The position numbers and the translations under genes were made by a program. DNA of 28,944 bases from Candidatus Odinarchaeia archaeon. Lineage in GTDB: Archaea > Asgardarchaeota > Odinarchaeia > Odinarchaeales > Odinarchaeaceae. Every line of letters begins with the position of its first letter. Position 1 is the stretch's first letter. The DNA lies in the NCBI GenBank assembly GCA_029856525.1, contig JAHQXC010000007.1, forward strand, positions 1 through 28,944. Direction: 5' to 3'. Shown piece after piece: positions 3,046 through 28,929 of the stretch. The notes under the pieces were generated by a model that was given only the letters and a program-made list of their open reading frames with translations, made no database searches and was not told the DNA's origin.

Positions 3046-5925
3046 TTGAATGCTTTCAGTGAATTAGACGATCTGCTTAGAGAGAAACTAGAGTTATTCG
3101 GGTTTAAAACACCCACGATCACGCAGGAGAAGGCGATTCCTAAAATCCTTAAAGGGTATAATACTCTTATAATCGCGCCTACAGGTTCAGGGAAAACTGA
3201 AGCTGCAGTATTCCCTATTTTAAACGGTATACTCCAGGACAGGAAAACCGGTGAGGGAGTAACAGGGATAAAAGCCTTGTATATTACTCCTTTAAAAGCT
3301 CTTAACAGGGATATTCTTAAACGAGTGATAAAACTAGGAGAAGCGCTTAACATTAAAATAGAAGTCCGGCATGGGGACACCAGCCCGCCTACTAGGAGAA
3401 AGCAGGCTTTAAACCCGCCGGATATTCTCATACTCACACCTGAAACCTTGCAGGCGATACTTCCAGGTAAAAAAATCAGAGAACATTTAAGAGCGGTAAA
3501 ATGGGTGGTAATAGACGAGATTCATGAATTAGCTAATGATGAAAGAGGAGCCCAGCTCTCAATAGGTCTTGAAAGACTTGAACAGCTTACAGGGCGAAGA
3601 TTCCAGAGAATAGGGCTTTCAGCCACAGTTGGAGGAGCCTCGAAAATAGCTAAATTTCTAGTCGGAAACACCGGGGAAACTAAAATAATTTATCTAAGTG
3701 GTGGTAAAAAGTTCATAATACATATAGATTACGCAGAAGCCTCTGAAGAAGATTATAAACTAGCAGCGGAGATAAAGTCTACTCCTAGAATCGCTAAAGT
3801 AATCAGATTACTTGATAAACTTATACGTGAACATAAATCAGTTCTAGTATTCACCAACACAAGAGAGGCTGCGGAGATCCTCGCCTCTAAGCTAACTCAA
3901 TACAATCCTAGTTTCAATTTCGCAATTCATCACAGCTCGCTCTCTAAAGAAGTGAGGCTTGAAGCTGAATCAAAGTTTAAAGATGAGATAATAAAATGTA
4001 TAATCTGCACATCCTCTTTAGAACTGGGAATAGATATAGGAAGCATTGATCTTGTAATCCAATTCATGTCGCCTAGACAAGTCTCTAAATTAATTCAGCG
4101 CATAGGCAGAGCAGGACATAAACTCGAAACACCGTCTGAAGGATATATTATCGCAATGAATATTGACGATATTTTAGAATCCTTGTCGATATGTAAAGGT
4201 GTGCTTAAAAATAAAATTGAAGAAATAACACTCCACGAAAACAGTTTAGATGTATTATGCCATCAAATCGCTGGAATAGTACTAGATAACAGTAAAATAG
4301 AATTAGAGAAACTATACGATATAATTCGGGGATCCTATCTTTACCGTCAGATTTCTCTTGAAAAAATTAAAAAAATAGTTGAATACATGCACGATCATAA
4401 ATTAGTTTACTTAACCGGTAATCTCGTTAAAAAAAGTCGAAAAACTCTACAATACTATTATTCGAATCTTTCAATGATACCTGACGTTAAACAATACGAG
4501 GTATTAGATATTTCATCAAACCTTAAGATAGGTCGACTAGACGAAGAGTTCGTCGTCAACACGCAACCTGGAGAGGTGTTTATAGCTAAAGGTCAAGCTT
4601 GGCGTATAATATCGATAGAAGATAACTTGATAAGAGTTGAACCTGTCCCCGCTCCTACAGCAGCGGTCCCTTCATGGGAGGGAGAGCTGCTGCCTGTTCC
4701 ATATAATATTTCTAGAATGGTCGCCGCGTTCAGGGACAGATTATATAATAATCTTTCAAGTCACACTACAGGTAACCCTATTGAAACAATTAAAGAATCT
4801 CTTCTAAATAGTAGAGTAGAACAGCGAAACATCATAATAAAAGAAGACGCTTTAAAAAAAATATATGATAGCATACGCTTCTATGTAGAGAATAAAGAAC
4901 CTTATAACGGCGAGAATGATATTCTCATAGAGTCAGCTGAGAATATGATAATAGTTCATCTCTGCTACGGTAGTAAAGTGAATCAAACAATCGCGCAGTT
5001 GATAGCTGCAATACTGTTAAGTAAATTAGGTGAAAGTATAATTATTAAGTCTGATCCATACAGGGTTATAATTCAGAACGCTACAGGATTAAACTGTAAC
5101 ATGATTAAAGACGTTTTTTATGAACTTGAAACAGAACATTTAAAACCGCTTTTAGAAACCACTTTAAAGCAAACCGCTCTCTTCAACTGGAAATACGTGT
5201 ATGTTGCTAAAAGATTCGGTTTAATTGAAAAAGACGCGGATTACAGCAGCACAGATATAAAAAGACTCATCAAATACTATGATCCAATAATCATAGAGGA
5301 GACTATTCGAGAAATATTACTTGAAAAAATGGATTTGAAAAAAACTTCAGAAGTGTTAAAAAAAATTAGATCAGGAGAAATTGAGATAAAATTAAAAGAG
5401 TATAAGCGAAGTTTAAACTACGGGGAGTTTACTAATATAGCTTTAGAGAATCTAGGTGTAAGAGATTTAGTTTCACCTGAAAAACCTATAGCTGAGATTT
5501 TAAACGTGTTTAAAAAGAGATTAGAGTCCGCTAGTAAGAAGTTAATATGCTTGTACTGTGGAAAATTTGAGTCAACTCGAACCGTAGGTTCACTAGAAGA
5601 ATATCCTAAATGCCCTATTTGCAATTCAAGATACTTAGCCGCGGTTTACCCGAACGACGAGGAATCCTATCAATTAGTTAAAAAATGGAAGACAGGTCGT
5701 AGATTAGACGCAGCAGAGCAGCGTAAAATAAAAAAATTACAGGAAGTTGGAAGTCTAGTTTTAACAATGGGTAAAAAAGCTATAATGGCTTTAGCGGCTA
5801 GAGGCGTCGGCCCTCAGAGTGTTAAAAGAATTTTTTCGAAAACAAGCTTAACAGAGCGGGATATTCTACTAGAGATTCTACGAACAGAGAAAAAATATAT
5901 TGAAACAAGAGGTTTTTGGGAGTGA
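3046..5925 (+). CDS. lhr: Lhr-family SF2 helicase with C-terminal Zn ribbon
   Basis: APTGSGKT, YITPLKALNRD, DEIH, GLSATV, TSSLELGIDIG, QRIGRAGH; C-terminal CLYC...CPIC; TTG start. Confidence 0.93.
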   Translation: MNAFSELDDLLREKLELFGFKTPTITQEKAIPKILKGYNTLIIAPTGSGKTEAAVFPILNGILQDRKTGEGVTGIKALYITPLKALNRDILKRVIKLGEALNIKIEVRHGDTSPPTRRKQALNPPDILILTPETLQAILPGKKIREHLRAVKWVVIDEIHELANDERGAQLSIGLERLEQLTGRRFQRIGLSATVGGASKIAKFLVGNTGETKIIYLSGGKKFIIHIDYAEASEEDYKLAAEIKSTPRIAKVIRLLDKLIREHKSVLVFTNTREAAEILASKLTQYNPSFNFAIHHSSLSKEVRLEAESKFKDEIIKCIICTSSLELGIDIGSIDLVIQFMSPRQVSKLIQRIGRAGHKLETPSEGYIIAMNIDDILESLSICKGVLKNKIEEITLHENSLDVLCHQIAGIVLDNSKIELEKLYDIIRGSYLYRQISLEKIKKIVEYMHDHKLVYLTGNLVKKSRKTLQYYYSNLSMIPDVKQYEVLDISSNLKIGRLDEEFVVNTQPGEVFIAKGQAWRIISIEDNLIRVEPVPAPTAAVPSWEGELLPVPYNISRMVAAFRDRLYNNLSSHTTGNPIETIKESLLNSRVEQRNIIIKEDALKKIYDSIRFYVENKEPYNGENDILIESAENMIIVHLCYGSKVNQTIAQLIAAILLSKLGESIIIKSDPYRVIIQNATGLNCNMIKDVFYELETEHLKPLLETTLKQTALFNWKYVYVAKRFGLIEKDADYSSTDIKRLIKYYDPIIIEETIREILLEKMDLKKTSEVLKKIRSGEIEIKLKEYKRSLNYGEFTNIALENLGVRDLVSPEKPIAEILNVFKKRLESASKKLICLYCGKFESTRTVGSLEEYPKCPICNSRYLAAVYPNDEESYQLVKKWKTGRRLDAAEQRKIKKLQEVGSLVLTMGKKAIMALAARGVGPQSVKRIFSKTSLTERDILLEILRTEKKYIETRGFWE

Positions 5926-6021
5926 CATGACATTAATCTTAATTTCAAAAAAATCTAAAAAAAATAGTTTAGAAGCCCTGTCACAAACCACTTTAGAATA
6001 GCTTACTATGATTAAAAACTA

Positions 6022-7220: not shown

Positions 7221-8369
7221 TTAATGACGGATTCTATAACTTATAACCGCTGCTAAACAAACACTTAACGCAATCATTATGTAACTGTAAGAAAATGAGC
7301 CTGTGAGATCAGTTAACCCTCCGAATAAAAGAGGAAATACTGTTACAGTGACGCCTGTCAAGCAGACTAGCAGCGTCATAGCGGTATTAGGATAATCTGG
7401 TTCAACTATTTTAGGAAGCGCCCATATAGGTCCCTGAGGAATCCAGACAAGCGCGCCTACAAACCAGCTTAAAAATAAATCGCTAATTAAATTAATTCCG
7501 GCTGAGAAAGGTAGTATACCCAGTGTTAAAGATAGTAAAGTTAATGGCACGGCTATCCATAACCCCTTCCTAGATTTTTTATCTGAGAAGTATCCTCCAA
7601 GTAACGCGAATATAATTCCAGCCAGAGAGGCCACTATCACAGTTAAATTAGCAATATTAGGGTTCACGTTTTTTTCAAATATTAGCGTTCTCGTGAAAAA
7701 AGTTAAGAATACAGTCCATGCGGCCATAGATAAACACTGAGCGATTGCGATTTTAAAAAGCTCCTTGTTTTTGAAGACTCTAACAGAGTTGACAGGCTTA
7801 TGAGAGCTGCCGGGTGTATCCGTCGTTAAGATCTGCACTATAATAGCTACGATTAAACCGTAAATAAATGTAAGAAAGAATATTCCCCTCCACCCTAAAA
7901 TACTCTCCTGCACCGGGACAGTTAAAAGGGCGGCGAGTGTCCCGATCCCGTAGCTTAAAACAATTAAAGAAGTAGCTAAAGATAATCGCTCTTTAGGATA
8001 TAAATTCGATACGATAACCACTCCAGGCGTCCAGAAGAGAATTGCACCTACCCCCGTGGTGAACCTTCCTAAGAGAACGATTTCAAATGTGAACGCTTGG
8101 CTTATTATAAGAGAACCTAATGCTACTGTAAGAGTCCCCGCTACTACTAGTTTTTTAAACCCGATTTTATCCGCGTAATATCCTACTATGAACTGGAGGA
8201 TTATCGCTGGAACCCAGTAAGCGGCCATCAACGCTCCGATGCCAATCTCTGTGATAGAGAAAACGGTTTGAAGCGTTATAGAGAGTAGAATGAAATCGAA
8301 TACCGAATAGCCGAATAACGTTCTAACAAGCATTCCAGCTAGCAGATTTCTCCCTTTAACAGTTAACAT
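7221..8369 (-). CDS. MFS transporter
   Basis: About 12 hydrophobic segments; MFS loop motifs GYYADKIGFK and GYFSDKKSRK. Confidence 0.9.
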   Translation of the reverse strand: MLTVKGRNLLAGMLVRTLFGYSVFDFILLSITLQTVFSITEIGIGALMAAYWVPAIILQFIVGYYADKIGFKKLVVAGTLTVALGSLIISQAFTFEIVLLGRFTTGVGAILFWTPGVVIVSNLYPKERLSLATSLIVLSYGIGTLAALLTVPVQESILGWRGIFFLTFIYGLIVAIIVQILTTDTPGSSHKPVNSVRVFKNKELFKIAIAQCLSMAAWTVFLTFFTRTLIFEKNVNPNIANLTVIVASLAGIIFALLGGYFSDKKSRKGLWIAVPLTLLSLTLGILPFSAGINLISDLFLSWFVGALVWIPQGPIWALPKIVEPDYPNTAMTLLVCLTGVTVTVFPLLFGGLTDLTGSFSYSYIMIALSVCLAAVISYRIRH

Positions 8370-8492
8370 AAAATCACGTGTAAAAAAATTAATCTATATT
8401 TGCCCGTGAATTGCTCAAACTCGAAGTATTATATAAATTTTTAAAAAATTATGGTTCACTTGTTTTAGAATTAATATTTAAGAATTAGATGT

Positions 8493-8834
8493 TTAAATTA
8501 GAAATAGAATTATTAATAAAGCCATGAAGATAATTATAGAGAGCGCGTTAACAAATCTGAATCTCTTAATTCTCTTCTGAACTTCTTCTATATTTCTTAA
8601 AGCCTGCTCCCTGTATAACCGGATATCATCAGAATCTAGGACTTGGCCTTCAAAACTTACAGGTTGAATTAATAAAAACTCTGGTTCAATAGGCTCATCT
8701 TCCTCTCCTAACATAGGATTATTAGAGTAGTCAACTCTCGCCTCTTCCTCACTCTCGCATAAAGGGCATAAACCTGTTCGAGGGTCAAACCATCTATCAT
8801 GAATTGGACAGTAGAGTTTTTTAACTTTCACCAT
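8493..8834 (-). CDS. Small tail-anchored membrane protein with N-terminal Zn-binding motif
   Basis: CPIH...CPLC, acidic linker, amphipathic helix, basic KRIKRFR, then one C-terminal TM helix ending at the stop. Confidence 0.75.
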   Translation of the reverse strand: MVKVKKLYCPIHDRWFDPRTGLCPLCESEEEARVDYSNNPMLGEEDEPIEPEFLLIQPVSFEGQVLDSDDIRLYREQALRNIEEVQKRIKRFRFVNALSIIIFMALLIILFLI

Positions 8835-24409: not shown

Positions 24410-26233
24410 ATGTGCGGTATAGTCGGTGTTATCACAGCTGAAGGGGGGGTTGGGGATGTTCTCAGCAAAGCTCTTAAGAGATTAGAGTACAGGGGATATG
24501 ATTCGGTGGGTGTGGCTACAGTTAACGAGAATAAACTATATATTAAGAAGGATAAAGGGAAGATAGATGAAGTTAATGAGAGACTGAATTTAACTGATGT
24601 ACCAGGGCGGACCGGTATAGGTCATACTAGATGGGCCACTCACGGCGTCCCTTCTAAGAGAAACTCTCATCCTCACGGTGATTGTAAGAATAGACTAGCT
24701 GTGGTTCATAATGGGATAATAGAGAATTACAGTGAGTTAAAGGAGAGGTTAACACGTAACGGCCATATTTTCTTATCCGACACTGACACCGAGGTAATCC
24801 CCCATCTTATCGAGGAGAAGCTGAATTCAGGTTTAACCGGTTTCCACGCAGTTCTAGAGGCGGTTAAAGAGTTGAAAGGATCATACGCGATCGCCGTGTT
24901 AATAGCAGATCACCCTGATAAAATATACGTAGCCCGTAATGAGAGTCCGCTTGTGATAGGTGTGAAAAATAAAAATTACGTGTTCTGCGCCTCCGATATA
25001 CCGGCTTTTCTACCTATAACTAATCAGGTGATTTTTCTCTACGACGGGGAGGTTGCAGAGCTTTCCTTAGAAGGTGTTGTAATTAGAAATTTAAACGGTG
25101 AAGTCGTTGAACGCGAAGTTTTAGAAGTGGATTTAACACCGGAGATGGCTAAGAAAGGCGGTTTCCCGCATTTCATGCTTAAAGAAATATTTGAACAACC
25201 TAAAGCTTTAAAAAACACGCTCCGCATAGATGAGCGGAAGTTAATTGAAGTTTGTAAAATATTAAGTGAAAGTAACAGAATAGTATTCACATCAGCTGGA
25301 ACCTCATTTTATGCAGGTTTATGCGGTAAATATTTTTTAGCAAATATTTCTAGAACAGGGTCAGAAGCCGTCATATCCTCTGAATTCGATGAAATTATGA
25401 AAAATATTATCGATGAAAGAACAACCGTTGTTGCGATAAGCCAGTCAGGGGAAACCTCGGATACAATAAGCGCGGCTAAATATGCTAAACGATTCGGCGC
25501 TAAAATTATTTCGATAAGTAACACTGTAGGCAGCTCGCTTACTAGGCTAGCTGATGCTACAGTGTATACTCAAGCAGGCCCTGAGATAGGGGTGGCCGCT
25601 ACTAAAACTTTTCTAGTTCAACTGGGTGCTTTAAGCCTTATCAGCTCTAAACTAGCCGAGTTTAAGGGGGTTATAACCAGAGACGAGTATAAAACACTAT
25701 TAAATGATTTGAATACTATACCTGAAATAATCCAATTAATTCTTGATAAAACAGAAGGAGAGGTTAAAGCCTCTACAGAAGCCTATTATAATTCTACAAG
25801 CATCTTGTATTTGGGGAGAGGGATTAGCTCAGCTGTAGCTATGGAAGGCGCTCTTAAACTTAAAGAAATATCGTATATTCACGCTGAAGGATACGCTGCC
25901 GGTGAATCGAAGCACGGTCCAATCGCGCTTATAAGTACAGGTTTCCCCGTCGTGTTTGTAGCGCCTATGGATTCAACGCATAATAAGATAATAGGGAATA
26001 TTATGGAGATGAAGTCAAGGGGTGCTAGAATAATATCTGTGATAGAAGAGGGAGATGAAGAGATTAAGAGTATCTCAGATACGGTTTTCCGTGTACCTAA
26101 AACCTCCGATAATTTTTTTAAACAAATAGTATATATAGTGCCGCTGCAATTATTCGCATATTACATTGCAGTTAGAAAAGGCTTAGATCCTGATAAGCCT
26201 AGAAATCTAGCTAAAGCTGTTACAGTTGCTTAA
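24410..26233 (+). CDS. glmS: Glutamine--fructose-6-phosphate aminotransferase (isomerizing)
   Basis: MCGIVG, LEYRGYDS, GHTRWATHG, VHNGIIENY, SQSGETSDT, EGALKLKEISYIHAEGY, KHGPIAL, DKPRNLAKAVTV. Confidence 0.97.
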   Translation: MCGIVGVITAEGGVGDVLSKALKRLEYRGYDSVGVATVNENKLYIKKDKGKIDEVNERLNLTDVPGRTGIGHTRWATHGVPSKRNSHPHGDCKNRLAVVHNGIIENYSELKERLTRNGHIFLSDTDTEVIPHLIEEKLNSGLTGFHAVLEAVKELKGSYAIAVLIADHPDKIYVARNESPLVIGVKNKNYVFCASDIPAFLPITNQVIFLYDGEVAELSLEGVVIRNLNGEVVEREVLEVDLTPEMAKKGGFPHFMLKEIFEQPKALKNTLRIDERKLIEVCKILSESNRIVFTSAGTSFYAGLCGKYFLANISRTGSEAVISSEFDEIMKNIIDERTTVVAISQSGETSDTISAAKYAKRFGAKIISISNTVGSSLTRLADATVYTQAGPEIGVAATKTFLVQLGALSLISSKLAEFKGVITRDEYKTLLNDLNTIPEIIQLILDKTEGEVKASTEAYYNSTSILYLGRGISSAVAMEGALKLKEISYIHAEGYAAGESKHGPIALISTGFPVVFVAPMDSTHNKIIGNIMEMKSRGARIISVIEEGDEEIKSISDTVFRVPKTSDNFFKQIVYIVPLQLFAYYIAVRKGLDPDKPRNLAKAVTVA

Positions 26234-26243
26234 AGGTGAAATT

Positions 26244-26924
26244 ATGTTTTATACACCTATATCATCTAGGACAAGCCCGCCTTACGCTACACTAGGGATA
26301 ATCGCTATTAACGTAATTATATTTTTCATTCAAAGCTCTAGTCCAGTCTATTATAATTATTTCCTGTTAAATTTCGGATTGATACCTTATGAAATAGTTT
26401 CAGGAGTTAATCTTCAAACGCTAATAACATCTATGTTTCTGCATGGAAGCTTCATCCATATCTTCTTCAACATGTATATACTCTTAATATTCGGGCCTGC
26501 GGTGGAGAGAAAGTATGGGACAGCTCTTTTTATAATATTCTATATTTTCTGCGGTGTGGCGGCTGGATTAATACACTCCTATATTACATTTATATTTATG
26601 CCTGCTGAAGCGTACACGATCACAATAGGCGCGTCTGGGGCTATATTCGGGGTGATGGCGGCGTATGCCGTAAACTATCCGAACCAGTATCTGCTACTAT
26701 TCTTCTTCACACCTGTGAAAGCGTATATAGCTATTACATTATTCTTTGTTCTTGAAACAGTAATGGGTTTAGCTGGATTATTCGGAGCGGCTTCAAGTAT
26801 AGCTCATTTCGCTCATGTCGGAGGTTTTATCGCAGGGGTTTTATTCGCGCTTCTCTACCTCCGGTTCAAGGGACGGGGGCCTAAAATAAAAAAGGAGAGA
26901 GATATAGAGGTTATCTATCTTTAA
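26244..26924 (+). CDS. Rhomboid intramembrane serine protease
   Basis: FLHGSFIHIFFNM, catalytic GASGA, AHFAHVGG; ATG 26244 with SD GGTGA preferred over TTG 26226. Confidence 0.93.
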   Translation: MFYTPISSRTSPPYATLGIIAINVIIFFIQSSSPVYYNYFLLNFGLIPYEIVSGVNLQTLITSMFLHGSFIHIFFNMYILLIFGPAVERKYGTALFIIFYIFCGVAAGLIHSYITFIFMPAEAYTITIGASGAIFGVMAAYAVNYPNQYLLLFFFTPVKAYIAITLFFVLETVMGLAGLFGAASSIAHFAHVGGFIAGVLFALLYLRFKGRGPKIKKERDIEVIYL

Positions 26925-27453
26925 TAGTGTTCAACTGGCCGGTGACTTTTCTAGCGCCTATAGAGACAGGGATGGCAATAAGTCCGCCGACTGTGAATTG
27001 CACGACATTTAACGGGAGCTCGACTGCAGCTGCTGCTATACTAAATAGTAGGGATTCAACCATAAAGTAGCCTGTTATCATCCATGGCCCGGCGACGATG
27101 AAACACGCGATTAAATCTAGATAGGTAAACCGATCTCTTCTACTGATAAGACCTGCGAGAAAACCTTCAAGCCCCTTTATTATAAACGTCCAAGGGGAGT
27201 AGAAAGCATACCCTGAAATTATATCAGCTAAAGCTGATCCTAGACCGCCAGCCACTCCGCCTACTACTGGTCCGAATAATAGTCCTGAGAGCATAACAGC
27301 CGCATCTCCTATGTTAATGTAGCCGCTTGTAGCTGGTACTGGTATTTGAATGATAATGGTCAACGCTATTGTAAGAGCGGAAAACAAACCTGTCAACGCT
27401 GCTTGAACTGAAAGAGGGTAGGCCGGTGTTCTTGATTTAAAAAAGTTTTTCAT
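26911..27453 (-). CDS. ECF transporter S component, COG4720-like (PdxU/HmpT-type; substrate unproven)
   Basis: IPVPATSGYINIGDAAV...FGPVVGGVAGGLGSALADIISGY...PWTFIIKGLEG; ATG 27453 with SD GGTGG. Confidence 0.88.
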   Translation of the reverse strand: MKNFFKSRTPAYPLSVQAALTGLFSALTIALTIIIQIPVPATSGYINIGDAAVMLSGLLFGPVVGGVAGGLGSALADIISGYAFYSPWTFIIKGLEGFLAGLISRRDRFTYLDLIACFIVAGPWMITGYFMVESLLFSIAAAAVELPLNVVQFTVGGLIAIPVSIGARKVTGQLNTIKDR

Positions 27454-27464
27454 AAAACCACCAG

Positions 27465-27504
27465 TATTCAAGCAGATACTTGTATACAAGCTTTAACTTG
27501 AATA
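27465..27504. promoter_or_regulatory. Tandem palindromic operator, 2 x TWCAAG-N6-CTTGWA, over the S-component promoter
   Basis: TATTCAAG-cagata-CTTGTATACAAG-ctttaa-CTTGAATA has dyad symmetry over 40 bp. It abuts the minus-strand TATA TTTATATT (27508..27501), which has BRE-like GAAAAG upstream. Confidence 0.75.
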
Positions 27505-27513
27505 TAAACTTTT

Positions 27514-28929
27514 CTAAAGCAGAAAAGCCAGCTCCTCTAACGCGTTAAGAACTCTAATCCCTCTAGCAGTTATAGAATAATATTTGCGATTATCCCTCTC
27601 AGTGGAAGAGATTAAACCACGCTCCTCAAGCTCGTTAAGATGCTGATAAACAGCCTGCAAACTAACAGATTTAGACAGTGAATTCCAGAGAGAATATCCG
27701 TACGTTTCACCTAGAGAAATCAATCTTAATATTCTAAGCTTCAAACCGACTTTATCCATTACACTTATATTCTTCGAAAAACCGGATAAAGCCGCAAGTA
27801 AAAACTGGTCTTTCAACCCGCTTCCGGTAATAATACACGTAACATTATCATCTTTATTCAAAACCCCGCTTTCACCGAGTTTTTTAACAGCCGCTATAGT
27901 AGCACAGCTAGCCGTCTCCGCGTAAACACCCTCCTCTAAAGCTAAAACCCTCTGAGCTTCAGCGATATCCTTATCAGAAACCGATAAAGCCATACCGCCA
28001 GATTCTTTAATCGCTGATAAAGCAAGTTCACCGTTTAAAGGCTCTAAAACCAGTATCGCTAAAGCAATAGTCGAGCCGTTGCTAACCCGTTCTACCCTAG
28101 TCTTTTTTTCAAAAGCCTGGACGATAGGTGAACATGTTAATGATTGCACCCCGACTAGTTTAGGCAGCTGAAGAGATAAACCGAGATCGTAAAATTCTTT
28201 AAATCCCTTCCACAGAGAATATACGCTGCCTCCGTCTCCAACAGGCATTACAACGTAGTCGGGGACACCTATCTGCTCAATAATCTCATATGCGATTGTC
28301 TTCTGAGCCTCTATTATAAGCGGGTTGAGACCGGAAGTAGCAGGGTAAACGTTTTCACCTTTAAATCGCTCAATAACAAAGCGTATAGCTTCATCAACAG
28401 TCTCACCGTTATAGATAATATTAGCCCCGTACATCTTCATCTGAGCTAGTTTACCTATATCCACCCTTCTAGGAACAACTATCGTACTTTTAATATTCGC
28501 GCGCGCGCAATATGCGGCTACAGCTGCGCCTAGATTTCCATTAGATGCGCAAACCATCTCCTTAAAATTTAAGCTTAAAGCATGAGATATTAGCAGACTA
28601 GCAGCTCTATCTCTAAAAGAATTAGTGGGATTACGCGACTCATCTTTTAAAAACAAGTTATTTAAACCTAAAATCGCGCTCAGCCTGCTAGCCTTGAATA
28701 AAGGAGTCCTCCCCTCTCCTAAAGATACTCTAAACTCCGGGCTAATATAAGGTAGAAGCGAAGCATACCGCCAGAAAGAGTCTACATCTAAGAAAGAAAT
28801 ATTATCTTTGAGTTTAGAGCAATCACAGAAATAGATAAGCGGCGTGGAGCATACCTCGCAAAGTGAAATAACCCTCTCTGTAATATAGACTCTACCACAC
28901 TTAGGACATTTAAACTCCATAGAACCCAT
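27514..28929 (-). CDS. Threonine-synthase-like fold-type II domain lacking the catalytic Lys, fused to a C-terminal PadR wHTH; predicted transcription regulator
   Basis: Zn ribbon CPKC...CEVC, SLGEGRTPL, KDESRNPTNSF(R)DR, ASNGN, EAQKTIAYEI, PVGDGG, TGSGLKD; then LKLRILRLISLGETYGYSL...AVYQHLNELEERGLI...RKYYSITARG. Confidence 0.85.
   Translation of the reverse strand: MGSMEFKCPKCGRVYITERVISLCEVCSTPLIYFCDCSKLKDNISFLDVDSFWRYASLLPYISPEFRVSLGEGRTPLFKASRLSAILGLNNLFLKDESRNPTNSFRDRAASLLISHALSLNFKEMVCASNGNLGAAVAAYCARANIKSTIVVPRRVDIGKLAQMKMYGANIIYNGETVDEAIRFVIERFKGENVYPATSGLNPLIIEAQKTIAYEIIEQIGVPDYVVMPVGDGGSVYSLWKGFKEFYDLGLSLQLPKLVGVQSLTCSPIVQAFEKKTRVERVSNGSTIALAILVLEPLNGELALSAIKESGGMALSVSDKDIAEAQRVLALEEGVYAETASCATIAAVKKLGESGVLNKDDNVTCIITGSGLKDQFLLAALSGFSKNISVMDKVGLKLRILRLISLGETYGYSLWNSLSKSVSLQAVYQHLNELEERGLISSTERDNRKYYSITARGIRVLNALEELAFLL

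Follow-up and report, generated by a model that had tools for sequence, protein, structure and literature searches.

A threonine synthase-like protein without its Schiff-base lysine as a candidate vitamin B6-sensing repressor of Asgard archaea and Bathyarchaeia

Introduction

What is the role of an archaeal protein that has the fold of threonine synthase (ThrC), has lost the lysine to which pyridoxal 5′-phosphate (PLP) would be bound as a cofactor, and ends in a DNA-binding domain? The question is raised by a gene in a stretch of 28,944 nucleotides from Candidatus Odinarchaeia archaeon (contig JAHQXC010000007.1 of assembly GCA_029856525.1, positions 1 to 28,944, forward strand), called the window in the following. 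The gene is followed, on the same strand, by that of a solitary S-component of an energy-coupling factor (ECF) transporter. Here we analyse this pair by sequence comparison and conclude that the 471-residue protein is probably not a threonine synthase but a one-component transcription factor, which would sense vitamin B6, most likely as PLP, and repress its uptake.

A first-pass annotation, made from the letters of the window, had described a ThrC-fold protein without its PLP lysine fused to a PadR domain, an orphan COG4720-like S-component 60 bp downstream on the same strand, and two tandem 18-bp palindromes over the TATA promoter of the latter. From these it read an enzyme fold repurposed as a sensor that controls uptake. 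The description of the locus is borne out by the results below, and the reading as a sensor gains support from the lysine loss, the linkage to S-component and pdxST genes and the recurring motif; from these we infer the ligand.

To our knowledge, Archaea have no known transcription factor for vitamin B6, and neither the fusion nor an archaeal B6 regulator was found described in the full-text literature (subscription journals not covered). On the side of transport and salvage, B6 transporters and some salvage kinases are still unidentified in most prokaryotes (PMC9997740).

The regulator protein

Pfam assigns residues 68-369 of the fusion protein to PALP (E 2.8e-77) and residues 400-462 to PadR (PF03551; E 2.2e-9, 37.6 bits against a cut-off of 27). 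The latter is the only helix-turn-helix (HTH) domain that Pfam detects, no GntR-type winged HTH (wHTH) being found at the N-terminus. The closest solved relatives are all ThrC structures (2zsj, 6cgq, 2d1f and 1uim). In the HMMER alignment to 2zsj, the SFKDR motif of the enzyme is matched by SFRDR (NPTNSFRDR in the longer form), with an arginine in place of the Schiff-base lysine; PLP enzymes of fold type II are established to rely on this lysine (PMC6411801). The cofactor pocket itself is kept. In an alignment of 22 diverse fused members (A1), N132, the glycine-rich loop (G231, G233 and G234) and the segment T368-G-x-G-L-K (T368, G371, L372 and K373) are invariant or nearly so, and these residues fit the phosphate loop of fold type II and the Ser/Thr at the pyridine nitrogen (PMC6411801). 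Y428, Q429, H430 and L431 of the PadR domain are invariant in the same alignment. The alignment of unfused ThrC relatives (410-430 aa) begins at profile position 3, and the four-cysteine zinc ribbon at the N-terminus appears to be inherited from archaeal-type ThrC. We had also considered using the loss of the ThrC arginine that contacts the substrate phosphate (NPYRIEGQKT) as an argument, and dropped it; the closest unfused archaeal-type ThrCs are without that arginine too.

The nearest fusion homologues are from Odinarchaeia (85% identity). The PALP and PadR domains occur together in each of the 120 closest homologues, and arginine occupies the lysine site in 116 of them. In the databases these proteins are nevertheless called threonine synthase, as the first-pass annotation had suspected: every named homologue carries this name because of matches to the models TIGR00260 and PRK05638. 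The latter (NF004170 in NCBIfam, "threonine synthase") gives 389 bits for the window protein, just below its cut-off of 421, and its profile positions 2-442 match residues 6-465, so that the model takes in the PadR domain. The curated PRK05638 equivalog model thus names lysine-less regulators as enzymes. It scores above its cut-off in none of 14 control genomes, among them Sulfolobus acidocaldarius, Haloferax volcanii and Methanocaldococcus jannaschii.

The database name would be correct if the protein were a working threonine synthase with a DNA-binding tail, i.e. a trigger enzyme. It passes the thrC model TIGR00260 with 221.6 bits against a cut-off of 167.1, and there are lysine-bearing fused relatives (see below) that may be active. 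However, arginine replaces the lysine both here and in nearly all close relatives, and the genome of the window has a separate, ordinary ThrC with the motif GSFKDRG (contig C4, G000:C4:5272-6183). Its PLP enzymes also include two TrpB. We consider a working synthase very improbable.

A homodimer model of the fusion protein reached a score of 0.79 against 0.00 for the best control, with at least 51% of the contacts agreeing between runs and a predicted local distance difference test (pLDDT) value of the partner of at least 85. In calibration, 20 of 30 proteins solved as one-chain pairs and 1 of 23 solved as single chains came up to the mark, counts that are only roughly valid for this model, which used a custom alignment and included PLP. 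The modelled interface lies in the ThrC-like domain and takes in residues 99-103 and 370-373, adjacent to the cofactor site. The good result may reflect the likeness to the solved ThrC dimers.

A stand-alone 125-aa open reading frame (ORF) elsewhere in the genome (G000:C31:14494-14757, minus strand) matches only the wHTH part of PRK05638 (profile positions 360-438) and is a possible unfused paralogue of the DNA-binding domain.

The promoter and its operators

The gap between the stop codon of the regulator gene (27514) and the start of the S-component gene is exactly 60 nt. Read on the minus strand, it consists of TAG, AAAAG, the TATA-like box TTTATATT, TTCAAGTTAAAGCTTGTA (whose first two T's are common to the TATA box), TACAAGTATCTGCTTGAA, TACTGGTGGTTTT and ATG. 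The ATG at 27453 follows GGTGG, and this start agrees with those in the relatives. Four species of the genus keep the TATA-like box, in the form TTTATAT or TTTTTAT. All elements of the locus are collected in Table 1.

Table 1. Elements of the regulator and transporter locus in the window
Element	Position	Strand	Basis or remark
Solitary ECF S-component gene, 180 aa, PF07155/COG4720 type, candidate B6 importer	26911..27453	-	Pfam
Shine-Dalgarno-like GGTGG, 4 nt before the S-component ATG	27458..27462	-	similar GGTG in the relatives
Operator box 1, TACAAGTATCTGCTTGAA on the minus strand; lies next to box 2 without a gap and over the expected start of transcription	27467..27484	.	palindrome search
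Operator box 2, TTCAAGTTAAAGCTTGTA on the minus strand; shares 2 nt with the end of the TATA box	27485..27502	.	palindrome search
TATA-like box TTTATATT of the S-component promoter, 5 nt past the regulator stop codon	27501..27508	-	conserved in genus
ThrC-fold/PadR fusion gene, 471 aa, candidate B6-sensing regulator	27514..28929	-	ORF; Pfam PALP and PadR; PRK05638
C-terminal PadR-type winged helix-turn-helix, residues 400-462, YQHL motif	27544..27732	-	PF03551
Fold-type II PLP-enzyme (ThrC-like) domain, presumed sensor and dimerisation domain	27823..28728	-	Pfam PALP
Codon AGA, Arg106 at the position of the PLP Schiff-base lysine	28612..28614	-	HMMER alignment to 2zsj
N-terminal zinc ribbon, C8, C11, C24 and C27	28849..28908	-	four Cys invariant in alignment A1

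The two boxes were compared with chance by searching for the pattern TWCAAG-N6-CTTGWA. In the window it occurs twice, with 0.01 occurrences expected, and none of 100 shuffled windows reached two. In the whole 1.32-Mb genome there are six occurrences and none of the backwards pattern, which served as the control. The remaining four sites in the genome are all internal to ORFs; they were taken to be chance matches, and a genome-wide regulon read from the motif was rejected. Between the species of the genus, the central CTTGTATACAAG is identical in all four, the palindrome arms are conserved and the 6-nt spacers differ. Conserved arms with free spacers are the pattern expected of a protein-binding site.

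The palindromes could also be read as an RNA hairpin that terminates the upstream gene or forms a leader structure, or as a product of chance in an AT-rich spacer. The 36-nt two-box element does fold, as a nested hairpin, at −13.5 kcal/mol. This is no better than for shuffled sequences (z −1.38; 19 of 200 shuffles fold equally well), no Rfam match to the element was found, the arms are conserved as sequence, beyond mere pairing, and motifs of the same type are also found in spacers between divergent promoters, a place where one would not expect a terminator. An RNA reading is therefore unlikely, and chance has the expectation per window given above against it; taken together, we give these two explanations hardly any weight.

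Autoregulation was also considered. In the loci with both genes on one strand, the 200 bp upstream of the regulator gene contained no palindrome of the family type; the window itself reaches only 15 bp upstream.

The transporter gene and the supply of vitamin B6

The S-component matches PF07155 with an E-value of 3.2e-38 (131.8 bits against 26.7). Its sole match among the sequences of the Protein Data Bank, up to E = 10, is 4hzu_S (E 3.1e-15), the HmpT protein of Lactobacillus brevis, which was shown to carry pyridoxamine (PMC4860826). PdxU and PdxU2/HmpT, both of the COG4720/PF07155 type, are the only known B6 S-components (PMC9997740). The six residues of the HmpT pocket, E41, H84, Q87, Y120, N140 and Q143, correspond to D50, K93, E96, Y129, N149 and Q152, i.e. 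three are identical and three are changed.

No gene for an ECF A or T protein was found near the S-component gene of the window. An EcfA-EcfA'-EcfT set (ABC_tran, ABC_tran and CbiQ in a row) without an S gene is present on contig C104 of the same genome, which fits the designation of the S-component as orphan. The genome also has a separate CbiMNQO set and a ThiD-type kinase.

Two routes to PLP are known, with PdxS and PdxJ as their signature enzymes. Neither enzyme was found in the window genome, which is rated 93% complete, or in three further genomes of the genus, one of which is a one-contig genome of 98% completeness. The sister family gave no match either, with two genomes covered for PdxS and one for PdxJ. 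Because these enzymes were not found, while PLP enzymes, the EcfAA'T set and a lone S-component are present, the organism seems to be auxotrophic for B6, with a solitary S-component and an ECF motor in shared use.

At its 3′ end, the S-component gene converges with a rhomboid-family gene on the plus strand (26226..26924), with an overlap of 14 bases (26911..26924).

Distribution and genomic context of the family

A pattern scan over one genome per prokaryote species gave 496 loci of the fused clade, mostly in Asgard archaea and Bathyarchaeia. The neighbourhood counts refer to the best 80 of these 496, which come from Odin-, Loki-, Hel-, Baldr-, Frey- and Jord-type Asgard archaea and from Bathyarchaeia, and in which S-component neighbours were found by iterated search with the window S-component as the query. 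A further 40 loci were cut out of other Asgard families. For a wider view, a profile search was made against 1.8 billion cluster representatives, and 150 representatives of 50%-identity clusters were compared.

We consider first the lysine site. In the set of 150, hits without the wHTH keep the lysine in 66 of 68 cases. Those that bear the wHTH have arginine (16), leucine (19) or isoleucine (15), followed by V, T, M, F and others, and just two combine the YQHL motif with a lysine. In a FastTree phylogeny of 211 proteins, which gives local support only, the fused proteins all fall on one side of a branch with support 89. They form two clades, an "Arg" clade (98) that holds the window protein, Bathyarchaeia and several Asgard families, and a "hydrophobic" clade (99). 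Nested inside the Arg clade are lysine-bearing fused proteins of one Asgard family (f9; loci L113-L119, NPTNSFKDR), mostly the only ThrC homologue in their own genome at E below 1e-30. Their genes adjoin an S-component gene with tandem TATAAG-N6-CTTATA boxes. These proteins may be bifunctional enzyme-regulators, or they may have arisen by a one-base reversion (AGA to AAA). Of the lysine-bearing fused representatives, P0122 and P0123 lie on contigs shorter than 2 kb, which give no gene context, and P0132 and P0133 have neither an S-component nor a pdx gene nearby. The exchange of lysine for arginine that the first-pass annotation expected to be conserved is thus only partly so: the loss of the lysine is general, but the arginine is confined to one clade, within which one Asgard group keeps the lysine.

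We now turn to the neighbouring genes. An S-component homologue is present in 75 of the best 80 loci. In 73 it lies directly downstream, starting 40-110 bp past the regulator stop codon on the same strand. Among the 40 further Asgard loci, the regulator has an S-component gene next to it or close by in 31, often in divergent orientation, and adjoining pdxS-pdxT in 3, while 6 lack both. A member from the cluster-representative search also sits directly upstream of pdxS-pdxT. The loci with this adjacency are L102/L127, L120, L123/L149 and L153. The pdxST-linked members fall in both major fused clades. The co-location with S-component or pdxS/pdxT genes that had been anticipated from the window is therefore found for both. 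In genome G053, which is rated 9% contaminated, operator boxes, an S-component gene and, about 70 bp later, pdxS follow one another on one strand (L176:63-1889), apparently a B6 importer and a synthesis gene in one unit. In the Asgard family f15, to which G053 belongs, the regulator is not adjacent to a target, and the unlinked S-component gene still has TACAAG-N6-CTTTAA upstream.

Duplicated arrangements were seen as well. The Bathyarchaeia locus L051 has two S-component genes (5427-5960 and 7794-8549), each with its own palindrome in front, and the Asgard genome G138 (L124 and L125) has two fused regulator paralogues, each with its own S-component gene beside it.

The operators vary between lineages, and all versions share an 18-bp layout of two hexamers separated by six nucleotides with an AG...CT core (AG-N6-CT). 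In Bathyarchaeia, TAGTATAGTT-N2-AACTATACTA lies at the equivalent place and overlaps a TATA-like box. When up to three mismatches are allowed, each of five genomes has exactly one such site, and the control gave none. When all palindromes of this 8-2-8 form are counted in the best 80 loci (about 700 kb), 52 of 57 lie 0-140 bp past the regulator gene, and two of the remaining ones precede further S-component genes. The hydrophobic clade has ATATA[AG]G-N6-C[CT]TATAT in the divergent spacer. In the 150 bp upstream, 65 of 107 S-component genes have a palindrome of the AG-N6-CT type, compared with 32 of 737 other ORFs; this comparison is descriptive, since the related genes are not independent of each other.

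The first-pass motif TWCAAG-N6-CTTGWA itself recurs in promoters elsewhere: exact Odin-type boxes precede S-component genes in three further Asgard families, and the motif stands before pdxS in two genomes. In one of these (G194), TACAAGTTATAACTTGTA is located 25 bp before pdxS-pdxT, in the spacer common to the regulator gene, and in another genome of its genus (G127), TACAAGTTGTAACTTGAA precedes a pair of genes for an S-component and an ABC ATPase (EcfA). In the other (G236), TTCAAGTAGAAACTTGCA lies in the spacer between pdxS and the regulator gene. The strict clade-B motif is unique in the 4.2-Mb genome G046, where it too is located in the pdxS-regulator spacer.

Two sets of sites were rejected. 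In five genomes of the Asgard genus g44, a scan that allowed one mismatch gave 44-90 matches per genome, about as many as the backwards control (48-68), so only exact sites adjoining regulator, pdxS or S-component genes were used. In G138 a second strict clade-B site lies between a GNAT gene and an HTH_10 gene, with no B6 link seen. As to the regulatory module that had been suggested for the window, the local S-component target stands, but a large regulon is not indicated; the window genome and the five Bathyarchaeia genomes look single-target.

Objections and alternatives

Several of the observations speak against a B6-sensing repressor and have to be weighed. Many different residues (R, L, I, V, M, T, F) occupy the lysine site, which is therefore not tuned to one ligand contact. 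The nested clade that keeps the lysine means that "dead enzyme" is not a valid description of the whole family. The 6 of 40 Asgard loci in which neither target adjoins the regulator also belong here. Two loci with Arg-type regulators in the Asgard family f7 (L111 and L112, genomes G080 and G011) have no S-component or pdx gene nearby, and the window S-component as a query finds no homologue in either genome. Concerning the sign of the regulation, the position of the operators suggests repression, yet RbkR, an archaeal vitamin regulator, was read as an activator from similar evidence (PMC5397151), and PdxR, the bacterial B6 regulator, activates pdxST. The remaining objections bear on the nature of the ligand and are discussed together with the two alternatives to which they belong.

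The first of these concerns true thrC genes. In about 16 Bathyarchaeia loci (L016, L025, L027, L032, L042, L045, L056, L071, L073, L076, L078, L082, L083 and L090 among them) a lysine-bearing thrC of 410-436 aa stands head-to-head with the regulator gene, and homoserine-dehydrogenase-like and ACT-domain genes lie beyond it. This would suit a regulator of the same type that responds to an amino acid or phospho-amino acid (threonine, O-phosphohomoserine or phosphoserine) or a PLP-amino-acid adduct, with uptake tuned to the amino-acid status. The derivation of the sensor domain from ThrC, with much of the active-site shell kept, agrees with such an effector, and so does the lysine-bearing clade, often the sole ThrC homologue of its genome. 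On the other hand, no family-type palindrome was found before the head-to-head thrC genes, and the conserved operators all precede S-component or pdxS genes. Adjacency to pdxST is found in both clades and carries no threonine link, and ECF S-components of the same type are known for vitamins and their precursors (PMC9997740). Moreover, the head-to-head thrC genes belong to a distant ThrC clade of the tree and are therefore not recent duplicates of the regulator. We regard an amino-acid effector as unlikely.

The second alternative is salvage of a thiamine precursor, in which the S-component would import hydroxymethylpyrimidine (HMP) in the manner first assumed for HmpT, with a pyrimidine or thiamine compound as the signal for the regulator. 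Half of the six HmpT pocket residues are altered in the window protein (E41 to D, H84 to K and Q87 to E), with only Y, N and Q identical. The S-component family also includes predicted HMP transporters, the function first predicted for COG4720 S-components, and 4HZU_S was deposited as HmpT. In addition, a gene of the PurM superfamily (PF00586 and PF02769) lies directly 3′ of the S-component gene, on the same strand, in 45 of the 80 loci, all of them from Bathyarchaeia (e.g. L021:5033-6061, plus strand, with the 44 others among L016-L090). The protein resembles ThiL (E about 1e-12 to 1e-28), and its nearest named kinase relative is thiamine-phosphate kinase. But it scores higher with HypE (E 3e-30) than with ThiL and stays below every NCBIfam cut-off, the so-called HmpT was shown to carry pyridoxamine and not HMP (PMC4860826), and none of the approximately 120 loci was seen with an adjacent thiamine gene, whereas pdxS-pdxT was seen. 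This alternative appears quite improbable to us. The PurM-like protein is a candidate for an ATP-dependent enzyme of B6 salvage in Bathyarchaeia, because its gene lies within the same regulated unit as the S-component gene.

The link to B6 rests on five lines: the adjacency to pdxST, the motif common to both kinds of target, the operators in G053 and f15, the kinship of the S-component with 4HZU_S, and a genus in which PLP synthesis was not found. A phosphorylated B6 vitamer as the effector and co-repressor is the simplest reading, since the phosphate loop is kept and the regulon combines genes of B6 synthesis and uptake.

Proposed mechanism

On this basis, a B6-sensing repressor could work as follows. 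The ThrC-fold domain, with its Schiff-base lysine lost and its cofactor pocket kept, would bind a B6 vitamer non-covalently, most likely PLP or another 5′-phosphorylated form. The protein would dimerise through the same domain, and the two PadR winged helices of one dimer would bind one of the 18-bp palindromes. The occupied boxes would block TBP/TFB or RNA polymerase at the S-component promoter; blocked initiation is proposed because the pair of boxes reaches from within the TATA box across the expected start site. With B6 plentiful and acting as co-repressor, the importer gene would be off; with B6 scarce, the protein would come off the DNA, allowing synthesis of the importer. To import B6, the S-component would then dock onto the EcfAA'T module encoded elsewhere. 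Ligand binding could alter the geometry of the dimer, because the modelled interface adjoins the cofactor site.

Relation to known systems

The closest functional parallel is found in Bacteria, in PdxR and the MocR group, in which a GntR-type wHTH is joined to a fold-type I, aminotransferase-like PLP domain. There, too, the fold of a PLP enzyme serves as cofactor sensor attached to a winged helix, and the regulon of PdxR consists of pdxST and a PdxU-type transporter (PMC5320631). The present family likewise adjoins pdxST or PF07155 S-component genes, with common operator types and with repeat operators in the spacer shared with pdxST. This is a parallel of function and not of membership: the sensor is of the unrelated fold type II (ThrC), the DNA-binding domain is of PadR type and C-terminal instead of GntR type and N-terminal, the PLP lysine is kept in MocR and mostly absent here, and PdxR is an activator of pdxST, where the operator position in the window suggests repression. 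MocR is reported to be absent from Archaea (PMC5320631).

Within Archaea, the comparison is with RbkR, a fusion of riboflavin kinase and a wHTH, which is also a one-component regulator built from an HTH and an enzyme of the vitamin's own metabolism, and which controls synthesis genes and the ECF S-component gene ribU via palindromes of 16-20 bp (PMC5397151). RbkR serves another vitamin, has an HTH of another family and is an active kinase, whereas the ThrC-PadR protein has lost its catalytic residue. In addition, the parent enzyme ThrC uses B6 and does not make it.

With respect to its parts, the fusion protein shares with ThrC a fold-type II domain of about 30-40% identity, the N-terminal zinc ribbon and the predicted mode of dimerisation. 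It differs in the missing Schiff-base lysine, in the additional PadR domain and in having a separate ThrC beside it in the genome. The canonical PadR proteins, such as Bacillus subtilis PadR and LmrR, have the same PF03551 winged helix, and a dimer on an inverted repeat is expected for both. They dimerise via the usual C-terminal helix of PadR, while here the wHTH is the C-terminal appendage of a 380-residue sensor and the dimer is modelled via the enzyme domain. The S-component of the window, finally, shares PF07155/COG4720 membership, the NVVQ motif and the pocket tyrosine with PdxU and with PdxU2/HmpT (4HZU chain S), and as a solitary S gene product it would use a shared EcfAA'T module in the same way. 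It differs from HmpT in the three pocket residues named above (E41D, H84K and Q87E) and in its predicted control by a protein regulator of a different family.

Conclusion

The enzyme fold encoded in the window probably acts as a sensor. Beyond this locus, we lean towards the view that the family as a whole is the missing archaeal B6 regulator, a convergent counterpart of PdxR in which a fold-type II PLP enzyme without its lysine serves as a non-covalent sensor of the cofactor. If so, this would be a case of an enzyme turned sensor by the loss of one catalytic residue, with convergence on PdxR from a different PLP fold.

Several consequences would follow. The regulon would mark the PF07155 S-components as archaeal B6 importers, the PurM/HypE-like ATP-dependent enzyme of Bathyarchaeia would be a new step of B6 salvage, and the lysine-bearing Asgard clade would represent either a still-active enzyme-regulator or a reversion. 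Hundreds of genomes would carry a wrong annotation as threonine synthase, which would distort metabolic reconstructions of how the archaea closest to eukaryotes make threonine and depend on B6. The family offers a testable regulator in hundreds of Asgard and Bathyarchaeia species, together with a candidate B6 importer and a regulon-based handle on the missing salvage genes.

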